Shown: piece after piece, positions 30,729-41,730 of the stretch
How the letters are laid out: every line of letters starts with the position of its first letter
Numbering within the stretch: the stretch's first letter is position 1
NCBI GenBank assembly: GCA_041288095.1
Contig: JBGGMJ010000210.1
Coordinates: 1 to 51,924 of the forward strand
DNA length: 51,924 nt
Source: Myxococcota bacterium
GTDB taxonomy: Bacteria > Myxococcota > XYA12-FULL-58-9 > JALHOP01
Direction: 5' to 3'
Program-made: the position numbers and the translations under genes
The notes under the pieces: model-generated
Seen by the model: only the letters and a program-made list of their open reading frames with translations
The model's database searches: none
What the model was told of the DNA's origin: nothing

Positions 30729-32234
30729 TCACGCCGTGGCGGTACGCAGGAGCGTGCGGCTGTCGATGGGCTTGGTGAGGTGCGAGTCGAAGCCGGCCTC
30801 GAGGGCTCGTGCCTTGTCCTCGGATCTACCGTAGCCGCTCACCGCCACCAGCGTCACCGAGCTGCCGAGGCGCTGGCGTGCGGCGCGGGCGATGGCATAG
30901 CCGTCCAGGCCGGGAAGACCGATGTCGATGAAGGCGACCTGTGGTCTGGTCGACAGCAAGAGATCGAGCCCCTTGGCACCGTCTCCGGCCACCGCGATCT
31001 GATGCCCAGCTCGCTCGAGGAGCGTCTTCATGGTCTCGCGCAAGTCTTCGCTGTCTTCGATGACGACGATGGTGCGCTGTTCGTGCGATGTCGCTGGCAT
31101 GTCGCTGTCGGCCTCCGTCGAGACCGGCTGAGTCATGGGTAAAGTCACCGTGAAAGTGGCGCCCTGACCGACGCCGCCGCTCGCGGCTTCGATACGACCG
31201 CCGTGAAGCTCGACGAGGCTCTTGGCGAGAGTCAAGCCGATACCCATCCCACCCTGCGAGCGCGCCAGTGCACTGTCCGCTTGAACGAACATATCGAAGA
31301 TGCGTGAGAGCATCTCGGCGGCGATGCCGATACCGTCGTCGCGGAAGGTGATGCGGACATCGGCTTCGACGCGCTCGACCGAGATCATGACCCGGCCGGG
31401 TGGCGGCGTGTACTTCAAACCGTTGGTCAACAGGTTCACGAACACCTGTTCGAGGCGCACCGGATCGCCGCGCACGAGCACGGCCTCCTTCGGCATCGAC
31501 AACATGACGCGCCGTTGGCCCTCGCGGGCTCCGACGTTGTTGATCGTGGCGGTGAGCATGGCGCTCACATCGACGGTGTCTTGCTTCAAGATGATGCGTC
31601 CGCTGGTGATACGCGAGACCTCGAGCAGATCGTCGACCAGCCGTGTGAGATGGCGTGCCTGGCGGGCGATGCGTTCGAGATGGACGTGGCGTGCGATGGC
31701 ATCGGGGTTGTCGTGGCGCAGCACCTCGACGCCGAGGACGACGGCGGCGAGCGGGTTGCGCAGCTCGTGCGAGAGCATGGCAAGGAAGCCGTCGCGTTGC
31801 AGGATGGCACCTTCGGCGGCGTATTGGCGATCGCGGGCCCGCAGCGCGCTCTTCAACGTGCTGGTGAAAGATACAATCTGGAGCGGCCGCTCGATGAACG
31901 TCACATTGCCGCCGGCGAGTAGCGTGTCGAGGCGGGCGGCGCGGCGCTGGGGGAGACGCCTAGGCTGGCGGGCAGTGATGACGATGAGCGGCAAGTCCGA
32001 CCACGCTGGCTGATCGCCGAGCAAGTCGGCCAGGCGCTCGATACCCTGCGCGTCGAACGCCTCTTCCGCGATGACGCAGACTCCTACCCCGCGGCGCGCT
32101 TCGTCGCACAGGGCCGACAAGTTGGCGCACACGGTGACCTCGAACTCAGCGCGGGTGAGAAACATGTGAGCAAGCTCACCGTCGCGGCCCGAGGGTGCCA
32201 CCACCAGGATGCGCGCGCGCATCCGATCACCCAC
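30729..32234 (-). CDS. Hybrid sensor histidine kinase/response regulator
   Basis: FLAMLSHELRNPL, NLLTNGLKY, DDGIGI, GMGIGL; C-terminal receiver DIGLPGLDG...KP. Confidence 0.95.
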   Translation of the reverse strand: MGDRMRARILVVAPSGRDGELAHMFLTRAEFEVTVCANLSALCDEARRGVGVCVIAEEAFDAQGIERLADLLGDQPAWSDLPLIVITARQPRRLPQRRAARLDTLLAGGNVTFIERPLQIVSFTSTLKSALRARDRQYAAEGAILQRDGFLAMLSHELRNPLAAVVLGVEVLRHDNPDAIARHVHLERIARQARHLTRLVDDLLEVSRITSGRIILKQDTVDVSAMLTATINNVGAREGQRRVMLSMPKEAVLVRGDPVRLEQVFVNLLTNGLKYTPPPGRVMISVERVEADVRITFRDDGIGIAAEMLSRIFDMFVQADSALARSQGGMGIGLTLAKSLVELHGGRIEAASGGVGQGATFTVTLPMTQPVSTEADSDMPATSHEQRTIVVIEDSEDLRETMKTLLERAGHQIAVAGDGAKGLDLLLSTRPQVAFIDIGLPGLDGYAIARAARQRLGSSVTLVAVSGYGRSEDKARALEAGFDSHLTKPIDSRTLLRTATA

Positions 32235-33696
32235 CCTTTCGCCTTAGCAAGTCGGCGTTCTCCCCCATGAAGCTGGGCACGCCGGTCAACACCCCTTGAA
32301 AGTTCTTGAGCTGATTGCCCACTAGGGCCCCGCCGTCTCCGAAACCCAGCTCGCGAATCGCGTCCTCGTGCCTGCCGGTGCGCTTCTTCACTACCGAGAT
32401 GGCTTTGCGGATGCTGCCCGCCGCTTCGAAGTAACGCAGCAAGACCACCGTGTCGGCGATGTAGCTTATGTCCACCGGAGCAGCCATCCCTGCGCCCATG
32501 AGTCCGTGCTGCGCCATCACCAAGAAGGTCGCGACTCCCTTGAGCGAGGCGTAGGTCAGGAGCTCGTGGATGTGCAGGGTCAGGAAGGATTCCTGCGGCA
32601 TCGCGGAGAGGTAACCATTCAAGCTGTCGATGACGACCGCGTCGGTGCCGCCGTCGATGGACGCGCGCACTCGGCAGGCGAATTCCCCGGGAGAAACCTC
32701 GGCGGGGTCGACCTGTTCGAGCAAGAGCCGGCCGCTCGCCATGGCCTTGTCGATGCCCATGCCGAGATGACGCGCGCGCGTCACGAGAGTCTCAACCGAC
32801 TCCTCGAAGCAATACATGACCGAGCGTCCGCCATTGCGGGCACTCGCTAGAGCGTAGTGCAAGCTGATCGTCGACTTGCCCGATCCCGCGGGACCGACGA
32901 TCAAGCTCGCGGTCCCGTAATCGATGCCGCCGCCGACCAAGGAATCGAGACCGGCGATGCCTGACGACAAGACACGCTGTAGCTTGCCGCCGCGGTGCTC
33001 CGCCGCCACCAGGCGCGGGAAGACCATCAAGCCGCCTTCGCGGATGACGTAGTCGTGATGGCCGCCGCGGAAAGGCACGCCGCGCAGCTTGGCCACGTGC
33101 AAGCGGCGCCGCTCACCGCCGTATTCCGGCGCCAAGCGCTGCAGGCCGATGACGCCGTGGACGAGGCTGCGCACCTGCTCGTCCGACGTCGGGTTGCTGT
33201 CATCGATGAGCAGAACGGTCGCTTCCTTGCCCACGAAGAAGCTCTTGAGCGCGAGGATTTGTCTGCGATAGCGGAGCGGGTCTTGCGCAAGCAAGCGGAC
33301 CTCGGCTAGCGAGTCGAAGACCACGCGATTTGGGTTGACCCGCGCTACCTCCTTCAGGAGCGCATCGGTGACCTCCTGCAGGTCGACATCGGCCGGATCG
33401 AACAGCGTGTTATCGTTGAGGCCCAGACGCTCGATGGCCGATAGCTCGAAGATGTCGAGCCCCTCGAGGTCCCACTTGTGAGCACCGGCGACCTCGGTGA
33501 TCTCGTCGCGCGTCTCAGCCAAAGTGACGTAAAGACAGCGTTCCCCCTGGCGAACGCCTTCGAGCAGATACTGCAGGGCCAGAGTCGTCTTGCCGACGCC
33601 GGGCTCACCCTGGATCAGGTACATGCGGCGGCGCGGCAACCCGCCACGTAACACATTGTCGAGTCCGGCGATCCCGGTGCGCGCTAAGTGCTCCAT
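32227..33696 (-). CDS. KaiC-like double-domain ATPase
   Basis: Start moved to ATG 33696 (GGAG RBS). TGIAGLDNVLRGG, GEPGVGKT, GPAGSGKS, VVKKR. Stop overlaps the kinase start. Confidence 0.92.
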   Translation of the reverse strand: MEHLARTGIAGLDNVLRGGLPRRRMYLIQGEPGVGKTTLALQYLLEGVRQGERCLYVTLAETRDEITEVAGAHKWDLEGLDIFELSAIERLGLNDNTLFDPADVDLQEVTDALLKEVARVNPNRVVFDSLAEVRLLAQDPLRYRRQILALKSFFVGKEATVLLIDDSNPTSDEQVRSLVHGVIGLQRLAPEYGGERRRLHVAKLRGVPFRGGHHDYVIREGGLMVFPRLVAAEHRGGKLQRVLSSGIAGLDSLVGGGIDYGTASLIVGPAGSGKSTISLHYALASARNGGRSVMYCFEESVETLVTRARHLGMGIDKAMASGRLLLEQVDPAEVSPGEFACRVRASIDGGTDAVVIDSLNGYLSAMPQESFLTLHIHELLTYASLKGVATFLVMAQHGLMGAGMAAPVDISYIADTVVLLRYFEAAGSIRKAISVVKKRTGRHEDAIRELGFGDGGALVGNQLKNFQGVLTGVPSFMGENADLLRRKGG

Positions 33697-33826
33697 CTTA
33701 TTGCTCCGTTGCTTGTAACGAATAGGCATCAAGCGGGCATCGCGCCACACCTGTGGCATTGGAAAAACGAACTGGGTTCTGCGTACCCAGGTGACCACCA
33801 GGCGCCAGCATCGCGGGAAAAAGGGC

Positions 33827-33853
33827 GCAACAACGCATTTGGCGGGCCGATAA
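33827..33853 (+). promoter_or_regulatory. Sigma28-like promoter GCAAC-N14-GCCGATAA
   Basis: Consensus FliA -10 box, 53 nt upstream of ATG 33907. Confidence 0.75.
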
Positions 33854-33906
33854 GTCTCGATGCTAGGCGAATTGCGCCCGGCGCGACTCGAGGACGTAAA
33901 AGCACC

Positions 33907-35106
33907 ATGCGTAGGCTCACAGCGTTGATCTTGCTCAGTTTCGCGGCAGCTTGCGGCTCGGAGCGGGACGTCCCGCCGGGCGCACCTCAAGACGACGACG
34001 GCGGCCCCAGCAGCGCGGCCTTCAGCGCCGAAGACCAAACGCCCGGATTTTACCGCGACGCCTATCGCCTCGTGACCGCGGTCAGCAGCGAGGATCACGC
34101 CACCGCGATCGAGCGTCTCCACTCGCACATCACCCACAAGCTCGAGAGCTCCCCGGAGCTCGACCGCATGCTCGAGCACGATCGCGACACCATTCGCGGC
34201 CTGCTCATCCTGGCCTTGCGCACCATGCAAGCGACCGAGCACCACCCCGAAGTCGCCCACCGCATGGGTGAGTCGATCCTCCAGAAGATTCTCGCGCTCG
34301 ATCCAGCCCGCAAGGTCTGGAACCAGAACAACCCTGGCGACCCGGTCGACATCGCCGAGCCCGGCGCCCGCCTCATCGCGCAGGCGACCGAAGGCGTCTT
34401 GCTCGACGCGGTGAACGCCCCGGTCGACAACTTCGGCAATCCCCTCGTGGGCGGACTGACCGCTGAAGCGGCCGCGCAGTGCGGGACTCCGACCACCCGC
34501 TCGTCGGTGTGGATCCCCGGCCTCGCCGAGCTCACCTGGGTCGACGGTTATTGTCTCCCCGACCAGTATCGCGAGGGCTATTGCGAGCCCGATCGCTACG
34601 TCGAAGGACAATGTTACGACGTCTGGGTCGACGACTGCGCCGGCGGCGAATACGTCAACCAGGGCTATTACGAGTACGTCTGCTACACGAGCACCGACTG
34701 CCAATATCTCTGGCGCAACCGCTGGGTCTGGGTCGGCGGCGGCTGCAACGACGGCTACTGGGACGAAGAGTGCGTCGGCGGTTCATACGAGCCCGGCCTT
34801 TGTTATCCCGACGAGGTCATTGCCGGCGTGTGCATCCCCGGTCGCTACTACTACTTCTATCCCTACGGCAGCTGGGCCTTCCGTGGCGGCGCCAGCAGCG
34901 CCTGTAGCCCGGTCGTGCCGGCGCAGGCGGCAGTGGCGCAGACCAGCGCCAAGATCCTCTCGGGCCGCCTCTCCAAGGACATCGCCGACGACTCGTGGCG
35001 CGCCGCGGTCTTGAACCTGGTCGCGCTGAGCAGCCGCCCGCCCGACGCCGACTACGTGGATGCCGTCCGCCAAATTCTCGAGGCTGCCAGAACGGCAGGT
35101 CCCTGA
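33907..35106 (+). CDS. Lipoprotein with Cys/Tyr/Trp/Gly-rich insertion
   Basis: Start ATG 33907 gives MRRLTALILLSFAAAC lipobox; 12 cysteines with mirror spacing. Confidence 0.8.
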   Translation: MRRLTALILLSFAAACGSERDVPPGAPQDDDGGPSSAAFSAEDQTPGFYRDAYRLVTAVSSEDHATAIERLHSHITHKLESSPELDRMLEHDRDTIRGLLILALRTMQATEHHPEVAHRMGESILQKILALDPARKVWNQNNPGDPVDIAEPGARLIAQATEGVLLDAVNAPVDNFGNPLVGGLTAEAAAQCGTPTTRSSVWIPGLAELTWVDGYCLPDQYREGYCEPDRYVEGQCYDVWVDDCAGGEYVNQGYYEYVCYTSTDCQYLWRNRWVWVGGGCNDGYWDEECVGGSYEPGLCYPDEVIAGVCIPGRYYYFYPYGSWAFRGGASSACSPVVPAQAAVAQTSAKILSGRLSKDIADDSWRAAVLNLVALSSRPPDADYVDAVRQILEAARTAGP

Positions 35107-35114
35107 TTTTTCGA

Positions 35115-35141
35115 GCAACAACCGGAAGCCGCTGCCGAAAA
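35115..35141 (+). promoter_or_regulatory. Sigma28-like promoter GCAAC-N14-GCCGAAAA
   Basis: Same boxes and spacing as the other copies; upstream of AGGAGG RBS and ATG 35166. Confidence 0.7.
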
Positions 35142-35165: not shown

Positions 35166-35663
35166 ATGGAAGCGAGCTCATTTTCCACCAGCCTAGCGAA
35201 GGCCAGCGCTGAAGACCGCAAGGTCTACATCACCAAGAAGAACGGTGATGTCGTCGGTAAAGGCTTCTCGGTCCCCAAGGGTGACTTCTCGCGCTTCCTC
35301 GGCATGAAGGCTCCGACCCCGCAGGAGACCGCCGGCAACGTCGCGGGTTTCCGCGCCATCGAAGTCGCGCTGCAGAAGCAGTTCAATCAGGTCGGCCGCA
35401 GCGCCGTGAAGAACGGTTCGAAGTACACCAGCATCGGTGGCGCCCTCGGCGCTTTCGACAATGAGCCCGGCCGCGAGTTCGATGCCGCGGCGAACGGCCT
35501 GGACGCTATGAAAGACAGCGTCGAGCTCGGTCACGCGATGGGCATGCAGTACCTGGAAATGCAGTACAAGTTCCAGGTCGCGAGCACGAACTATGGCGCC
35601 ATCTCGAACATGATGAAGGCCCGCTACGAGACCGTGAAGAAGTCGCTCGACGGCGTTCGCTAG
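35166..35663 (+). CDS. Hypothetical protein with type III needle/inner-rod-like C-terminal helix
   Basis: MQYLEMQYKFQVASTNYGAISNMMKARYETVKKSLDGVR; strong RBS; no Sec signal. Confidence 0.6.
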   Translation: MEASSFSTSLAKASAEDRKVYITKKNGDVVGKGFSVPKGDFSRFLGMKAPTPQETAGNVAGFRAIEVALQKQFNQVGRSAVKNGSKYTSIGGALGAFDNEPGREFDAAANGLDAMKDSVELGHAMGMQYLEMQYKFQVASTNYGAISNMMKARYETVKKSLDGVR

Positions 35664-37267
35664 AGCGGATCCCGGCCGCGTAACATCCGCTCACCGATGC
35701 TCTCGATGAGCAGCTGAGTGCTCGTCGCCAGCTCGACGAGCCCATCCCGCCGCATGCGCTCACGTGGCGTGTGGTTGTCCACGAGGTCGGTGCCCAGTGA
35801 GATGGCGGCCATGCCCTCGTAGAGCGCCGCGATCGCGCCACACTCGATCGTCGCCGGCAGCAGCGCGACCGATGCGAAATGCTGGCGTCCCAACGCCAAT
35901 GCCGTGCGCACCAGCCAGTGATCTTCTTCCAGCAACCACGGCGCGACGGCGTCGCGTTGGGTTTTTGCCACGTCGAACGCACCGCGCAAGGCTGACTCGA
36001 TGCGCGTGGCCCACGTGGTGGTGTCCGCGGGGGTAAACGTCCGCGCGCTGTAGACCGTGCCGACCGACCCATCGGCGGCGTCGGCCATCAACAAGGCGAA
36101 GTTCGAGGACACCTTCACGGTATCGGGATAGCCGGGGTCAGCGACCAAGAGACCGTCGGGAACCCCAGCGAGCCCGGTGGCTAGCCGCCGCGTTGCCTCC
36201 GAGGTGAAGGCCTTGGCCGCGGTGACCTCGCCGATCGAAGCGGTGAGCTTTACCTGCGCGGGATCTTCGTCGCGCGTCGCGAGCAACGCGGCGAGCTTGG
36301 CGCGCATCTCGGTCAGCGCCTTCTCCACGTTCTCCTTGGGGAGCACGAGGGTCATGCCGCAGGCGTCGTTGATCTTGTTGAAGACCTTACCATCGCCGGA
36401 CCTCACGTTCACGAGTCGTCCGCCAAAGCGTTCAGCGACGGCGATGAGCTCGGCGCCGGCGATCGCCGCGTTGAGACGTCGGCGGTGAGCATCGCGGGCC
36501 GCATGTCCGCCGCGCAGACCGCGAAGGTCGAGCTGCATCTGCGTCGAGCCGGCGTCGGGCGGAGCGGTCGGCGCGAGGCCCCCCATGAACGCTCCCGAGG
36601 ACCCCATGCACCCACGGGTGATGGTGCGGGCGCCGGGCGAGTCGAAGTTGAAGAGGACTCGCCCCGCGAGCGGCAGGCGCATCTGCCTTGCGCCAACGAG
36701 GCCGACTTCTTCACGTGTCGTGAAGACGAGCTCGAGCGGCGGGTGCTCGATGCTCGGGTCGGTGATGTAACGCGCCGCCACCGCCATACCCAAGGCGTTG
36801 TCGGCCCCGAGTGAGGTGCGGGAGCCGAGCGATCGGATCCACTGCTCACCGTCGACGGTGACCAGCTCGGTCTTCACGCCTTGGCGAAAATATGGGCGCA
36901 GATCTTCGCCGGGCTTCGCGCCCTCGACAGCGAGAACCATGTCCATGTGCGCCTGGAGGACGACCGGCTTCGCGAGGTTCGCGAACCGGCCGGTGCCGGG
37001 CAAACGCACGAGGAGGTTTCCCGCGTCGTCGCGGGCGGTCGAAACGCTCCCCGCCGGCCACAGGCTCTCTGACCGGCGCACGATGTCTTCGATTGCGGCG
37101 CGTGCCGCGTCTTCCTCACCCGGCGGGCGATAGAGCCTGGTGAATGCCTCGAAGAGATCCAACACGGCGCCGGCTTTCGTCTCCTGGCGGGGCAGCTTGC
37201 CGCCAGCGACTGCCGGCGGCGCGGGAGGCGCGGCTACTCCAAGGGGGCCCATCGTCACGTGTCGCAT
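35660..37267 (-). CDS. M20 family metallopeptidase, PepD (Xaa-His dipeptidase)-like, with Pro/Ala-rich N-terminal extension
   Basis: DDAGN, LQAHMDMV, LGADN, TREEVG, NFDS, GGH, HTPRE; start 37267 or 37252, downstream of the promoter motif. Confidence 0.85.
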   Translation of the reverse strand: MRHVTMGPLGVAAPPAPPAVAGGKLPRQETKAGAVLDLFEAFTRLYRPPGEEDAARAAIEDIVRRSESLWPAGSVSTARDDAGNLLVRLPGTGRFANLAKPVVLQAHMDMVLAVEGAKPGEDLRPYFRQGVKTELVTVDGEQWIRSLGSRTSLGADNALGMAVAARYITDPSIEHPPLELVFTTREEVGLVGARQMRLPLAGRVLFNFDSPGARTITRGCMGSSGAFMGGLAPTAPPDAGSTQMQLDLRGLRGGHAARDAHRRRLNAAIAGAELIAVAERFGGRLVNVRSGDGKVFNKINDACGMTLVLPKENVEKALTEMRAKLAALLATRDEDPAQVKLTASIGEVTAAKAFTSEATRRLATGLAGVPDGLLVADPGYPDTVKVSSNFALLMADAADGSVGTVYSARTFTPADTTTWATRIESALRGAFDVAKTQRDAVAPWLLEEDHWLVRTALALGRQHFASVALLPATIECGAIAALYEGMAAISLGTDLVDNHTPRERMRRDGLVELATSTQLLIESIGERMLRGRDPL

Positions 37268-37275
37268 GGCCGGCG

Positions 37276-37302
37276 GTATCGGCAGGGCGCCATCCAAGGT
37301 GC
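37276..37302 (-). promoter_or_regulatory. Sigma28-like promoter GCACC-N14-GCCGATAC
   Basis: Same spacing; one mismatch in each box. Confidence 0.6.
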
Positions 37303-37401
37303 AGGGCGGGAAATGCCCGAATGGCACCCCGGGCTGTTCACCAGGTCACGGCGCCGGTTTTTTCTCAACGGCGACGCCCCCTGGCATGCTCGCCAGGCGC
37401 G

Positions 37402-41703: not shown

Positions 41704-41730
41704 TTATCGGCGCCCAGCCCTGGTGGTTGC
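41704..41730 (-). promoter_or_regulatory. Sigma28-like promoter GCAAC-N14-GCCGATAA, antisense to the SnoaL/ctpA genes
   Basis: Perfect match, back-to-back with the plus-strand copy. Confidence 0.6.

Follow-up and report, generated by a model that had tools for sequence, protein, structure and literature searches.

A mirror-symmetric twelve-cysteine ladder in a Myxococcota lipoprotein and the long beta ribbon predicted from it

Results

The window analysed here, by which we mean the whole stretch of 51,924 nucleotides (nt) in contig JBGGMJ010000210.1 of a Myxococcota bacterium (assembly GCA_041288095.1), carries a gene for a 399-amino-acid (aa) lipoprotein in which 12 cysteines are spaced almost symmetrically about a central C-YTSTD-C loop. 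We consider it likely that residues 192-333 of this protein form one very long two-stranded beta ribbon, stapled by disulfides into a rigid rod. The gene and its parts are listed below, with helices and confidence values (predicted local distance difference test, pLDDT) from AlphaFold2 (AF2) models.

33907..35106, + strand: lipoprotein gene, 399 aa plus stop, its ATG lying within the frame 33688-35106; 13 full-length homologues
33907..33954, + strand: signal peptide and lipobox, M-RR-LTALILLSFAAA-C16, recognised by eye from the sequence
33955..34023, + strand: acidic, Pro/Gly-rich tether of low confidence, residues 17-39 (AF2 pLDDT <50 for residues 1-36)
34024..34479, + strand: N-terminal helical half of the base, residues 40-191 (AF2 helices 48-170 and 186-193; block pLDDT 77-95)
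34480..34905, + strand: 12-Cys mirror ladder, a predicted two-stranded beta ribbon, residues 192-333 (from sequence, alignment and AF2)
34681..34701, + strand: tip turn C259-YTSTD-C265 (spacing of 6 in 12 of 13 homologues; flanked by strands 254-259 and 265-270 in both models)
34906..35103, + strand: C-terminal helices of the base, residues 334-399 (AF2 helices 337-352, 354-358, 362-373 and 381-395)

Symmetry of the cysteine spacing

Besides the lipobox Cys, the mature part of the protein contains exactly 12 Cys, whose codons start at positions 34480, 34552, 34582, 34612, 34636, 34681, 34699, 34744, 34771, 34801, 34831 and 34903. The successive spacings are 24,10,10,8,15,6,15,9,10,10,24, with a sum of 141 codons. 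On recount, these positions and spacings and the sequence of the central loop were exactly as given in the initial annotation, and its description of the segment as rich in Tyr, Trp, Gly and Val agrees with a composition of 20 Gly, 19 Tyr, 12 Cys, 12 Val and 8 Trp in 142 residues, which together carry a net charge of -13.

None of 2,000,000 random placements of 10 Cys, with the two ends fixed, brought the left-right differences between gaps down to a sum of 1 or less, and a fraction of 2.8e-4 of the permutations of the same 11 gaps was equally symmetric. The genome served as a further control, with 3,463 windows of 12 consecutive Cys located in 174 open reading frames (ORFs). Non-periodic palindromic windows occurred in 9 ORFs, among which the ladder gene had by far the widest gap range (6 to 24); its non-periodicity score of 5.11 was the highest in the genome, with scores of 3.1 or less for the other ORFs. 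The gaps that depart from periodicity are 24, 8/9, 15, 6, 15, 9 and 24. Since the gaps are mirrored and not directly repeated, which tandem duplication cannot yield, we infer that the spacing reflects a constraint from antiparallel pairing.

Conservation of the ladder in a small family

All 12 ladder Cys were invariant in the 13 aligned full-length homologues, at identities down to 29%, and the inner gaps 10,10,(8 or 9),15,6,15,9,10,10 were retained in 12 of these. The distant members follow a stricter palindrome than the genus of the window, in which one gap of 8 replaces 9: eight of nine distant members had the gaps 24-26,10,10,9,15,6,15,9,10,10,25-30, as exemplified by the series 25,10,10,9,15,6,15,9,10,10,26. 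The initial annotation had asked whether homologues change their number of repeats; no member gains or loses a rung of the ladder, and the symmetry is retained in 12 of the 13, the deviating one being P0012.

As judged from database searches, the family is very small and without annotation. Four family proteins were found among 5.8 billion clusters by sequence search, and a profile search of a 5.8-billion-sequence database returned five proteins, just one of which was a new member. An exhaustive HMMER search over 1.84 billion representatives yielded 14 members (11 with E<=1e-30), while scans of species genomes and of metagenomes gave four and two family loci, respectively. Members were present in 7 of 41 related genomes, among them all three further genomes of the genus, and the family was found only in uncultured Myxococcota, two of them submitted as 'uncultured Bdellovibrionales'. 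The lipoprotein had no Pfam family at E<=1, and its sole row in NCBIfam, TP0584_fam, had an E value of 0.065 and 12.1 bits versus a cut-off of 125; no curated Cys-rich repeat family in the two databases was matched above cut-off. A sequence search of the PDB with the lipoprotein profile gave no matches at E<=10. The ESM Atlas yielded no usable feature match; its model had a pLDDT of 0.44 and the structure rows had template modelling (TM) scores of 0.28 or less.

Predicted structure of the ladder segment

The full-length protein was modelled with AF2 from a 13-sequence alignment and the domain only (residues 186-340) from an alignment of 15 rows, and the strand pairing was taken from the DSSP strings of both models. 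In the full-length model (mean pLDDT 77.3; predicted TM score, pTM, 0.71) residues 1-36 are disordered and an all-beta insert lies between helices in the segments 48-170 and 337-395, consistent with the suggestion in the initial annotation that the flanks of the ladder are helical. The domain-only model had a mean pLDDT of 82.0, with 77 of its 155 residues at 90 or above. All strands are mirrored about the C259-YTSTD-C265 turn in both models, such that Cys k faces Cys 13-k. The mirror pairs read from the DSSP strings are:

Outer pairs: residues 200-203/322-325, 208-212/313-317 and 215-216/309-310
Middle pairs: residues 220-222/303-305, 225-226/299-300 and 230-241/284-295
Tip-proximal pairs: residues 248-251/273-276 and 254-259/265-270

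The sums i+j of the paired strand positions are 525 in the outer part and 524 in the inner part, and the domain-only model gave the same values after renumbering. The Cys pairs fall into the same two classes, with sums of 525 for 192+333, 216+309, 226+299 and 236+289, and of 524 for 244+280 and 259+265. The C244/C280 rung is a likely hinge, because loops and lower pLDDT values are found there in both models, at the one-residue change of register. At the level of the models, the segment is an antiparallel hairpin with Cys opposite Cys, as in a cystine ladder.

The distribution of aromatic residues in the alignment follows the same register. When the two arms were paired as defined by the Cys, eight pairs of aromatic-majority columns faced each other (202/323, 211/314, 225/300, 231/294, 240/285, 249/275, 255/269 and 257/267); the 16 registers obtained by sliding by 1-8 positions gave 0-3 such pairs. 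The invariant Gly at 224, 297, 307 and 321 lie opposite columns of Pro/Asp in the facing arm. Close to the tip, conserved Tyr/Trp occupy the positions of Cys parity, and the opposite parity is charged and variable. Since the aromatics are located at Cys parity, like in a tryptophan zipper, the ribbon would satisfy its own aromatic residues and leave the other face soluble. The long beta-hairpin put forward in the initial annotation is thus upheld as a prediction by the mirrored strands of two models and by the aromatic register.

Among 48,161 PDB representatives, a single chain matched the domain model at Z>=2. This was the HU-like protein 6lmh_A (Z 2.2; root-mean-square deviation, rmsd, of 2.7 A over 48 residues from both arms), and the matching part was its two-stranded arm. 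Foldseek searches of the PDB with the full model and the domain model gave nothing at E<=0.001, and the best row for the domain model versus BFVD (E 2.9e-3 at TM 0.17) was not accepted as a match. The best of the non-significant Foldseek rows were dominated by long-hairpin proteins, namely the stems of lysenin, anthrax PA, aerolysin, CDTb and iota, and further such rows were tail proteins of phi29, Andhra and P68. Many weak structural neighbours would be expected for a compact beta domain, and high local confidence combined with a low pTM fits an extended, hinged object. Given the scarcity of structural neighbours and the long hairpins among the Foldseek rows, we therefore accept the extended ribbon as the best reading. 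A globular fold had been named at the outset as evidence that would speak against the hairpin; by the structure searches, the predicted model is non-globular.

The lipoprotein signal and the helical base

That the protein is a lipoprotein, as the initial annotation had stated, agrees with its N-terminus, which by eye reads as a lipoprotein signal with a basic n-region, a hydrophobic h-region and a lipobox Cys. This residue, Cys16 (codon at 33952), is conserved in at least 90% of the aligned homologues, in which the lipobox varies between L-A-A-C, L-V-A-C and L-T-S-C, and it is followed by Gly-Ser at positions +2/+3. A Tat signal was considered and rejected, because the RR is confined to the genus of the window and homologues have a single R. 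The sequence GAGGA is located 11 nt 5' of the ATG at 33907. The G+C content of the window is 62-70% and that of third codon positions (GC3), counted from this ATG, is 0.84.

The N-terminal half of the base contains the motifs TPGxxRxxxR and LDP, which are invariant in the homologue alignment. When the full model was compared with known structures, the helical base matched only generic helical bundles, with a best Z of 8.3 that lies within the noise band of the tool. FliS chaperones (Z 7.3 and 7.0 to the helical base) were set aside, since these values fall inside the same band for helical bundles.

A proposed envelope rod

The following arrangement is proposed. Once the protein has been exported by Sec and lipidated, helices from both termini would pack into one base domain, in which residues 192-333 would be inserted as an antiparallel two-stranded ribbon with 67 residues per arm. 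The insert would zip from the tight YTSTD turn and form six nested disulfides (C192-C333, C216-C309, C226-C299, C236-C289, C244-C280 and C259-C265). Conserved cross-strand Tyr/Trp pairs would add stability in the manner of a natural tryptophan zipper, and Pro-Asp would face Gly in each 10-residue rung unit. Since charged, variable residues make up its other face and the segment has a net charge of -13, the ribbon would most likely be a soluble, self-standing rod. Such a rod would be thin, acidic and protease-resistant, with a softer hinge at C244/C280, and would sit on a flexible tether of ~25 residues. It would measure at most ~22 nm, an upper bound obtained by arithmetic from 67 residues per arm and 0.33 nm per residue, below which the Pro-Asp/Gly bulges must bring the ribbon. 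The length of roughly 20 nm named in the initial annotation is likewise a product of arithmetic.

In the cell, the rod could give the envelope a rigid element for reach or spacing; the initial annotation had offered a spike, ruler or adhesin as candidate roles. It might cross the periplasm, for instance by passing through the meshwork of the cell wall, or project from the surface, and it would be co-expressed from a sigma28-type promoter class with a neighbour resembling a type III secretion substrate. Along with this outline we infer the disulfide bonds and the monomeric state, as well as where the lipoprotein resides and what it does; its function is probably that of a rigid envelope rod, and we grade any particular function well below the structural core.

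Enzymes for disulfide formation are indicated in the genome of the window (G000) by eight DSBA-family and two VKOR matches. One open frame of 414 aa (G000 C1:20076-21176, + strand) contains both a VKOR and a DSBA match and probably encodes a fused disulfide-forming enzyme.

Weighing of alternative interpretations

Several observations weigh against the stapled ribbon. The pLDDT of the ladder was just 60-79 per block in the full-length model and the pTM of the domain model was 0.34. Because the alignments contained 13-15 sequences, AF2 may largely follow the Cys pattern, and both the disulfide bonds and the true length are deduced from register and arithmetic. DsbB was not found in G000, a genome that is 90% complete. 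DsbA tends to link consecutive Cys, and only C259-C265 of the six proposed bonds joins such residues; the other five would therefore have to be isomerised, or to be oxidised once the hairpin is zipped up from the tip. P0012 is asymmetric at the hinge and the tip (6,15,5,14, that is, 6 vs 9, 15 vs 14 and a loop of 5). The most conserved motifs other than Cys are situated in the helical base, which matches no known family. Furthermore, palindromic Cys spacing (asymmetry <=3) is frequent in the genome, because periodic tandem repeats, from which 142 windows were derived, are trivially palindromic. Finally, the 10,10 gaps are tandem 10-residue units of the form C-x-P-D-x-aromatic-x-x-G-x, which occur in both arms in the same chain direction.

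The last two observations are those expected if the segment were a compact Cys-rich domain, knotted or modular and closed by local disulfides like the EGF, TNFR and granulin modules or the Cys repeats common in Myxococcota, and the palindrome were a by-product of the 10-residue units: periodic Cys-repeat proteins with trivially palindromic spacings abound in the genome, and the 10,10 gaps of both arms are one repeated motif. However, the series 24, 8/9, 15, 6, 15, 9, 24 is non-periodic and underlies the score of 5.11, both AF2 models contain mirrored strands instead of modules, and the aromatic columns follow the mirror register too. In addition, only 1 of the 48,161 chains reached Z>=2, where many weak neighbours would be expected, there was no Pfam family at E<=1 and the NCBIfam row was far below threshold (E 0.065). 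We regard a compact domain as very unlikely. An isolated two-stranded ribbon exposing an aromatic face is unusual. The hairpin might instead be the protomer of an oligomeric beta-barrel or tube with a membrane-inserting aromatic tip, as in the stem of a pore toxin or in a lipoprotein channel; at E values no better than 0.1, pore stems (lysenin, anthrax PA, aerolysin, CDTb and iota) head the Foldseek rows of both models, and over 11 residues to either side of the tip a conserved Tyr/Trp face alternates with a mixed one. None of these rows is significant (TM 0.23 or less, rmsd >20 A), however. Moreover, the conserved face consists of cross-strand-paired Tyr/Trp and not of aliphatic residues, the opposite face is charged and variable in a segment with a net charge of -13, and the Pro-Asp/Gly bulges break the strands every 10 residues. 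A barrel is in our view improbable.

The same one-sided, conserved aromatic strip could also be a natural dimer interface, and mirror spacing taken alone fits intramolecular and swapped pairing equally well. The symmetry might then serve an intermolecular antiparallel pairing, in a dimer or fibre that is disulfide-linked or joined through its aromatic faces. Against this, the 6-residue turn C259-C265 and the strands that reach this turn in both models favour an intramolecular hairpin, and the cross-strand aromatic pairs at Cys parity are already satisfied within one hairpin; the odds of an intermolecular arrangement appear small.

Comparison with known systems

The proposed two-stranded ribbon resembles the cystine-ladder hairpin peptides (theta-defensins, tachyplesin, protegrin, gomesin and arenicin) in being an antiparallel hairpin with parallel cross-strand disulfide rungs that share one face with the adjoining side chains. 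These peptides are free, secreted antimicrobials of ~17-21 residues, cationic and with 2-3 close rungs. In contrast, the ladder segment is acidic, contains six rungs separated by 6-24 residues and is inserted into a helical lipoprotein; with 142 residues and a charge of -13 in a protein of 399 aa, it is not a short cationic secreted peptide of ~20 residues, and no sequence relation to the cystine-ladder peptides was found. The ladder shares the cystine-ladder principle only, scaled up about sevenfold and fused into a lipoprotein. To our knowledge, cross-strand cystine ladders are known only from peptides of ~20 residues. Among the abstracts obtained in literature searches on cystine-ladder beta-hairpins and on long-hairpin periplasmic lipoproteins, none described a protein of this kind.

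A second point of comparison is the designed tryptophan-zipper hairpins, which are monomeric, carry cross-strand aromatic pairs on one face and lack a hydrophobic core. The ladder likewise has eight conserved cross-strand aromatic pairs, but the tryptophan zippers are synthetic peptides of 12-16 residues without disulfides. Hairpins of comparable length are found in the stems of beta-pore toxins and in phi29-type tail proteins; unlike the ladder, those stem hairpins occur only in oligomeric barrels, lack a ladder of disulfides and turn an aliphatic tip towards the membrane. The beta-ribbon arms of HU/IHF, of which 6lmh_A is the example, are free-standing two-stranded ribbons as well, yet are ~20 residues long, lack Cys, bind DNA and are cytoplasmic. 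The predicted rod shape most likely has no counterpart among solved structures.

With regard to function, the envelope-spanning lipoproteins Lpp, LpoA, LpoB and RcsF combine a lipid anchor and a flexible tether with an elongated element that spans the periplasm. They make use of coiled coils, tetratricopeptide repeat (TPR) rods or disordered linkers and not of a disulfide-stapled ribbon, and there was no match to them in sequence or fold. The functional analogy that we favour is nevertheless with the Lpp and LpoA/LpoB type, to which the lipoprotein may correspond in role without being related.

If the prediction is correct, the segment would be a domain-sized cystine ladder, with six rungs over 142 residues and a natural aromatic zipper in addition, and a long, rigid, two-stranded beta rod would be possible without a hydrophobic core. 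A confirmed rod would in practice be a new fold class. It could provide a scaffold for engineering, as a thin, protease-resistant spacer of set length, and would represent a new way of reaching across the bacterial envelope. All that goes beyond the sequence pattern is prediction, made for uncultured organisms.

A promoter class shared with the neighbouring gene

The lipoprotein gene is followed by a gene for a 165-aa protein, and both are preceded by sequences of one promoter class.

33827..33853, + strand: lipoprotein promoter, GCAAC (-35), 14-nt spacer and GCCGATAA (-10, at 33846-33853)
35115..35141, + strand: second promoter, GCAAC-N14-GCCGAAAA, directly 5' of the 165-aa gene
35166..35663, + strand: 165-aa neighbour gene, 60 nt downstream of the lipoprotein gene
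about 41704-41730, - strand: further copy of the promoter class in the window

The consensus for sigma28 (FliA) has GCCGATAA at -10 and TAAA at -35, ~15 nt upstream. The lipoprotein promoter had been described in the initial annotation as perfectly sigma28-like; this is correct for the -10 element, which is exact, and does not apply to the -35 element, which is GCAAC at a 14-nt spacing and not TAAA. The motif GCAAC-N13-16-GCCGATAA was present at 26 genomic sites, of which 20 had a 14-nt and six a 15-nt spacer, and at 0-1 sites in each of five control spacer windows. In the relaxed form CAAC-N13-16-CCGATA[AT] there were 83 genomic sites versus 6-11 in the controls. GCAAC-N14/15-GCCGATAA is a genuine, spacing-specific promoter class of G000.

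The promoter motif was retained 5' of the lipoprotein orthologues in L009, L010, L011, L061 and L062, and the variant GCCGAAAA was located 5' of those in L012 and L008. In L012, the sequence CAAC-N14-CCGATAA is also found ~50 nt before the orthologue of the 165-aa gene. As the same promoter class precedes both genes, the lipoprotein and the 165-aa gene are therefore taken to be co-regulated, beyond mere adjacency.

By the criteria applied, an ORF followed 25 of the 26 strict sites. The lipoprotein gene and four short ORFs (70-109 aa) were left out; of the proteins encoded by the other 20, 14 had no Pfam family at E<=0.01. The class looks like a large regulon of proteins without annotation, read by a sigma28-like factor in an organism in which flagellin was not found. 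The two best FliA-like sigma genes in G000, on contigs C92 and C127, scored 166 and 164 bits, below the cut-off of 189.6 bits. Under one of the strict GCAAC-N14-GCCGATAA promoters lies a gene for a 412-aa protein without a Pfam family (G000 C10:81060-82298, - strand; L039), the C-terminus of which weakly matches the needle family PF09392 (E 0.023).

The 165-aa protein and type III secretion

The initial annotation had placed the lipoprotein gene directly before a needle-like gene. The two genes do adjoin. The 165-aa protein lacks a signal peptide; its N-terminus is rich in Ser, and it has an invariant motif of the PKGDFSRFLG type and a conserved C-terminal helix ending in Arg. The designation 'needle-like' is no more than a lead: PF09392 was not among its Pfam matches at E<=1, and a genome-wide search for PF09392 (E<=1) identified three loci, all different from the 165-aa gene. 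On the other side, its C-terminus is homologous to a protein of a type III cluster, and in terms of language-model features its nearest neighbour (0.95) was a Myxococcota cluster in which 11% of the members have PF09392. A PDB sequence search with the profile of the 165-aa protein gave chance rows only, with E of 1.2 or more.

The homology concerns the last 54 residues, which match a 190-aa ORF (C92:37389-37958) at an hhalign probability of 96.8%. By this match, the 165-aa protein is a C-terminal paralogue of a protein encoded in the type III cluster. Genes for a FliA-like sigma factor, a 141-aa TPR protein and the 190-aa protein are clustered at G000 C92:35191-37958 (L037:3192-5959, - strand), and the pair of 141 and 190 aa resembles a chaperone together with a substrate of needle or translocator type. 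The same contig C92 contains FliP/SctR and YscJ_FliF-family (SctJ/FliF) matches, and a FHIPEP/SctV match is located on C31. Flagellin was not found in the search of the G000 genome. A flagellar context was rejected on the grounds that no flagellin was found and that the open frame with the YscJ_FliF-family match is only 294 aa long. With SctR/SctJ/SctV-type matches and no flagellin found, G000 therefore has a non-flagellar type III export apparatus. Weak matches to the C-terminal part of the 165-aa query were seen in ORFs of roughly 180-260 aa in most of the related genomes.

Relatives of these Myxococcota include predatory bacteria. We consider it doubtful that the rod has a direct role with the type III-like apparatus. 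A more specific scenario, which we put forward with similarly little confidence, is that a ~20-nm rod with six disulfides and an aromatic zipper would be the distance-setting or prey-contacting part of a needle-less apparatus, co-regulated with its needle-like secreted partner by the sigma28-like factor of the apparatus. A prediction of the complex between lipoprotein residues 40-399 and the 165-aa neighbour had a score of 0.00, was made without controls and was not used. Two reports (PMC12075869; PMC11509652) describe a type III-like secretion system of Myxococcota, used in predation, as 'needle-less'. The co-regulated neighbour and the promoter class bear on whether such a system has unrecognised extracellular or periplasmic parts.

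Gene neighbourhood

In the window, and likewise in L009, L010, L011 and L012, the 165-aa gene adjoins the lipoprotein gene; in L012 the encoded lipoprotein has an identity of only 37-39% and the two genes are still adjacent. Both genes are present and non-adjacent in G017 and G019, there is no 165-aa gene within about 1.2 kb downstream in L062, and G009, G011 and G014 contain orthologues of the 165-aa gene and gave no lipoprotein match with the window query. Adjacency of the two genes is not obligatory. For P0004 and P0028, the longest contig has in both cases a length of 7,367. No RNA run was listed as containing the locus; of 14 listed runs, two soil-metagenome DNA runs contain most of it.

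Large proteins with strictly periodic Cys repeats, for example with the spacing 7,6,7,12, are numerous in G000 and its relatives. Examples of ORFs with periodic Cys repeats are:

G000 C34:1157-3457
G000 C47:23634-26375
G000 C181:11138-13339
L029:1-1179, - strand

The remaining neighbours of the two genes are not conserved partners. The FtsE, FtsX, M23 and S41 genes located downstream were rejected as functional partners, because their adjacency is limited to the close relatives L009-L011 and does not extend to L012. Between the 165-aa gene and ftsE, the window contains an M20/M28-like peptidase gene (35660-37327, - strand; sub-threshold Pfam scores) that has no counterpart in L009-L012. On the other side, between a HAD-like gene and the lipoprotein gene, lie genes for a KaiC-like double-domain ATPase and a hybrid histidine kinase/receiver (30729-33648, - strand). 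This pair is also found in L010 and is absent at the same position in L009, L011 and L012; it is a mobile or variable two-gene insertion.

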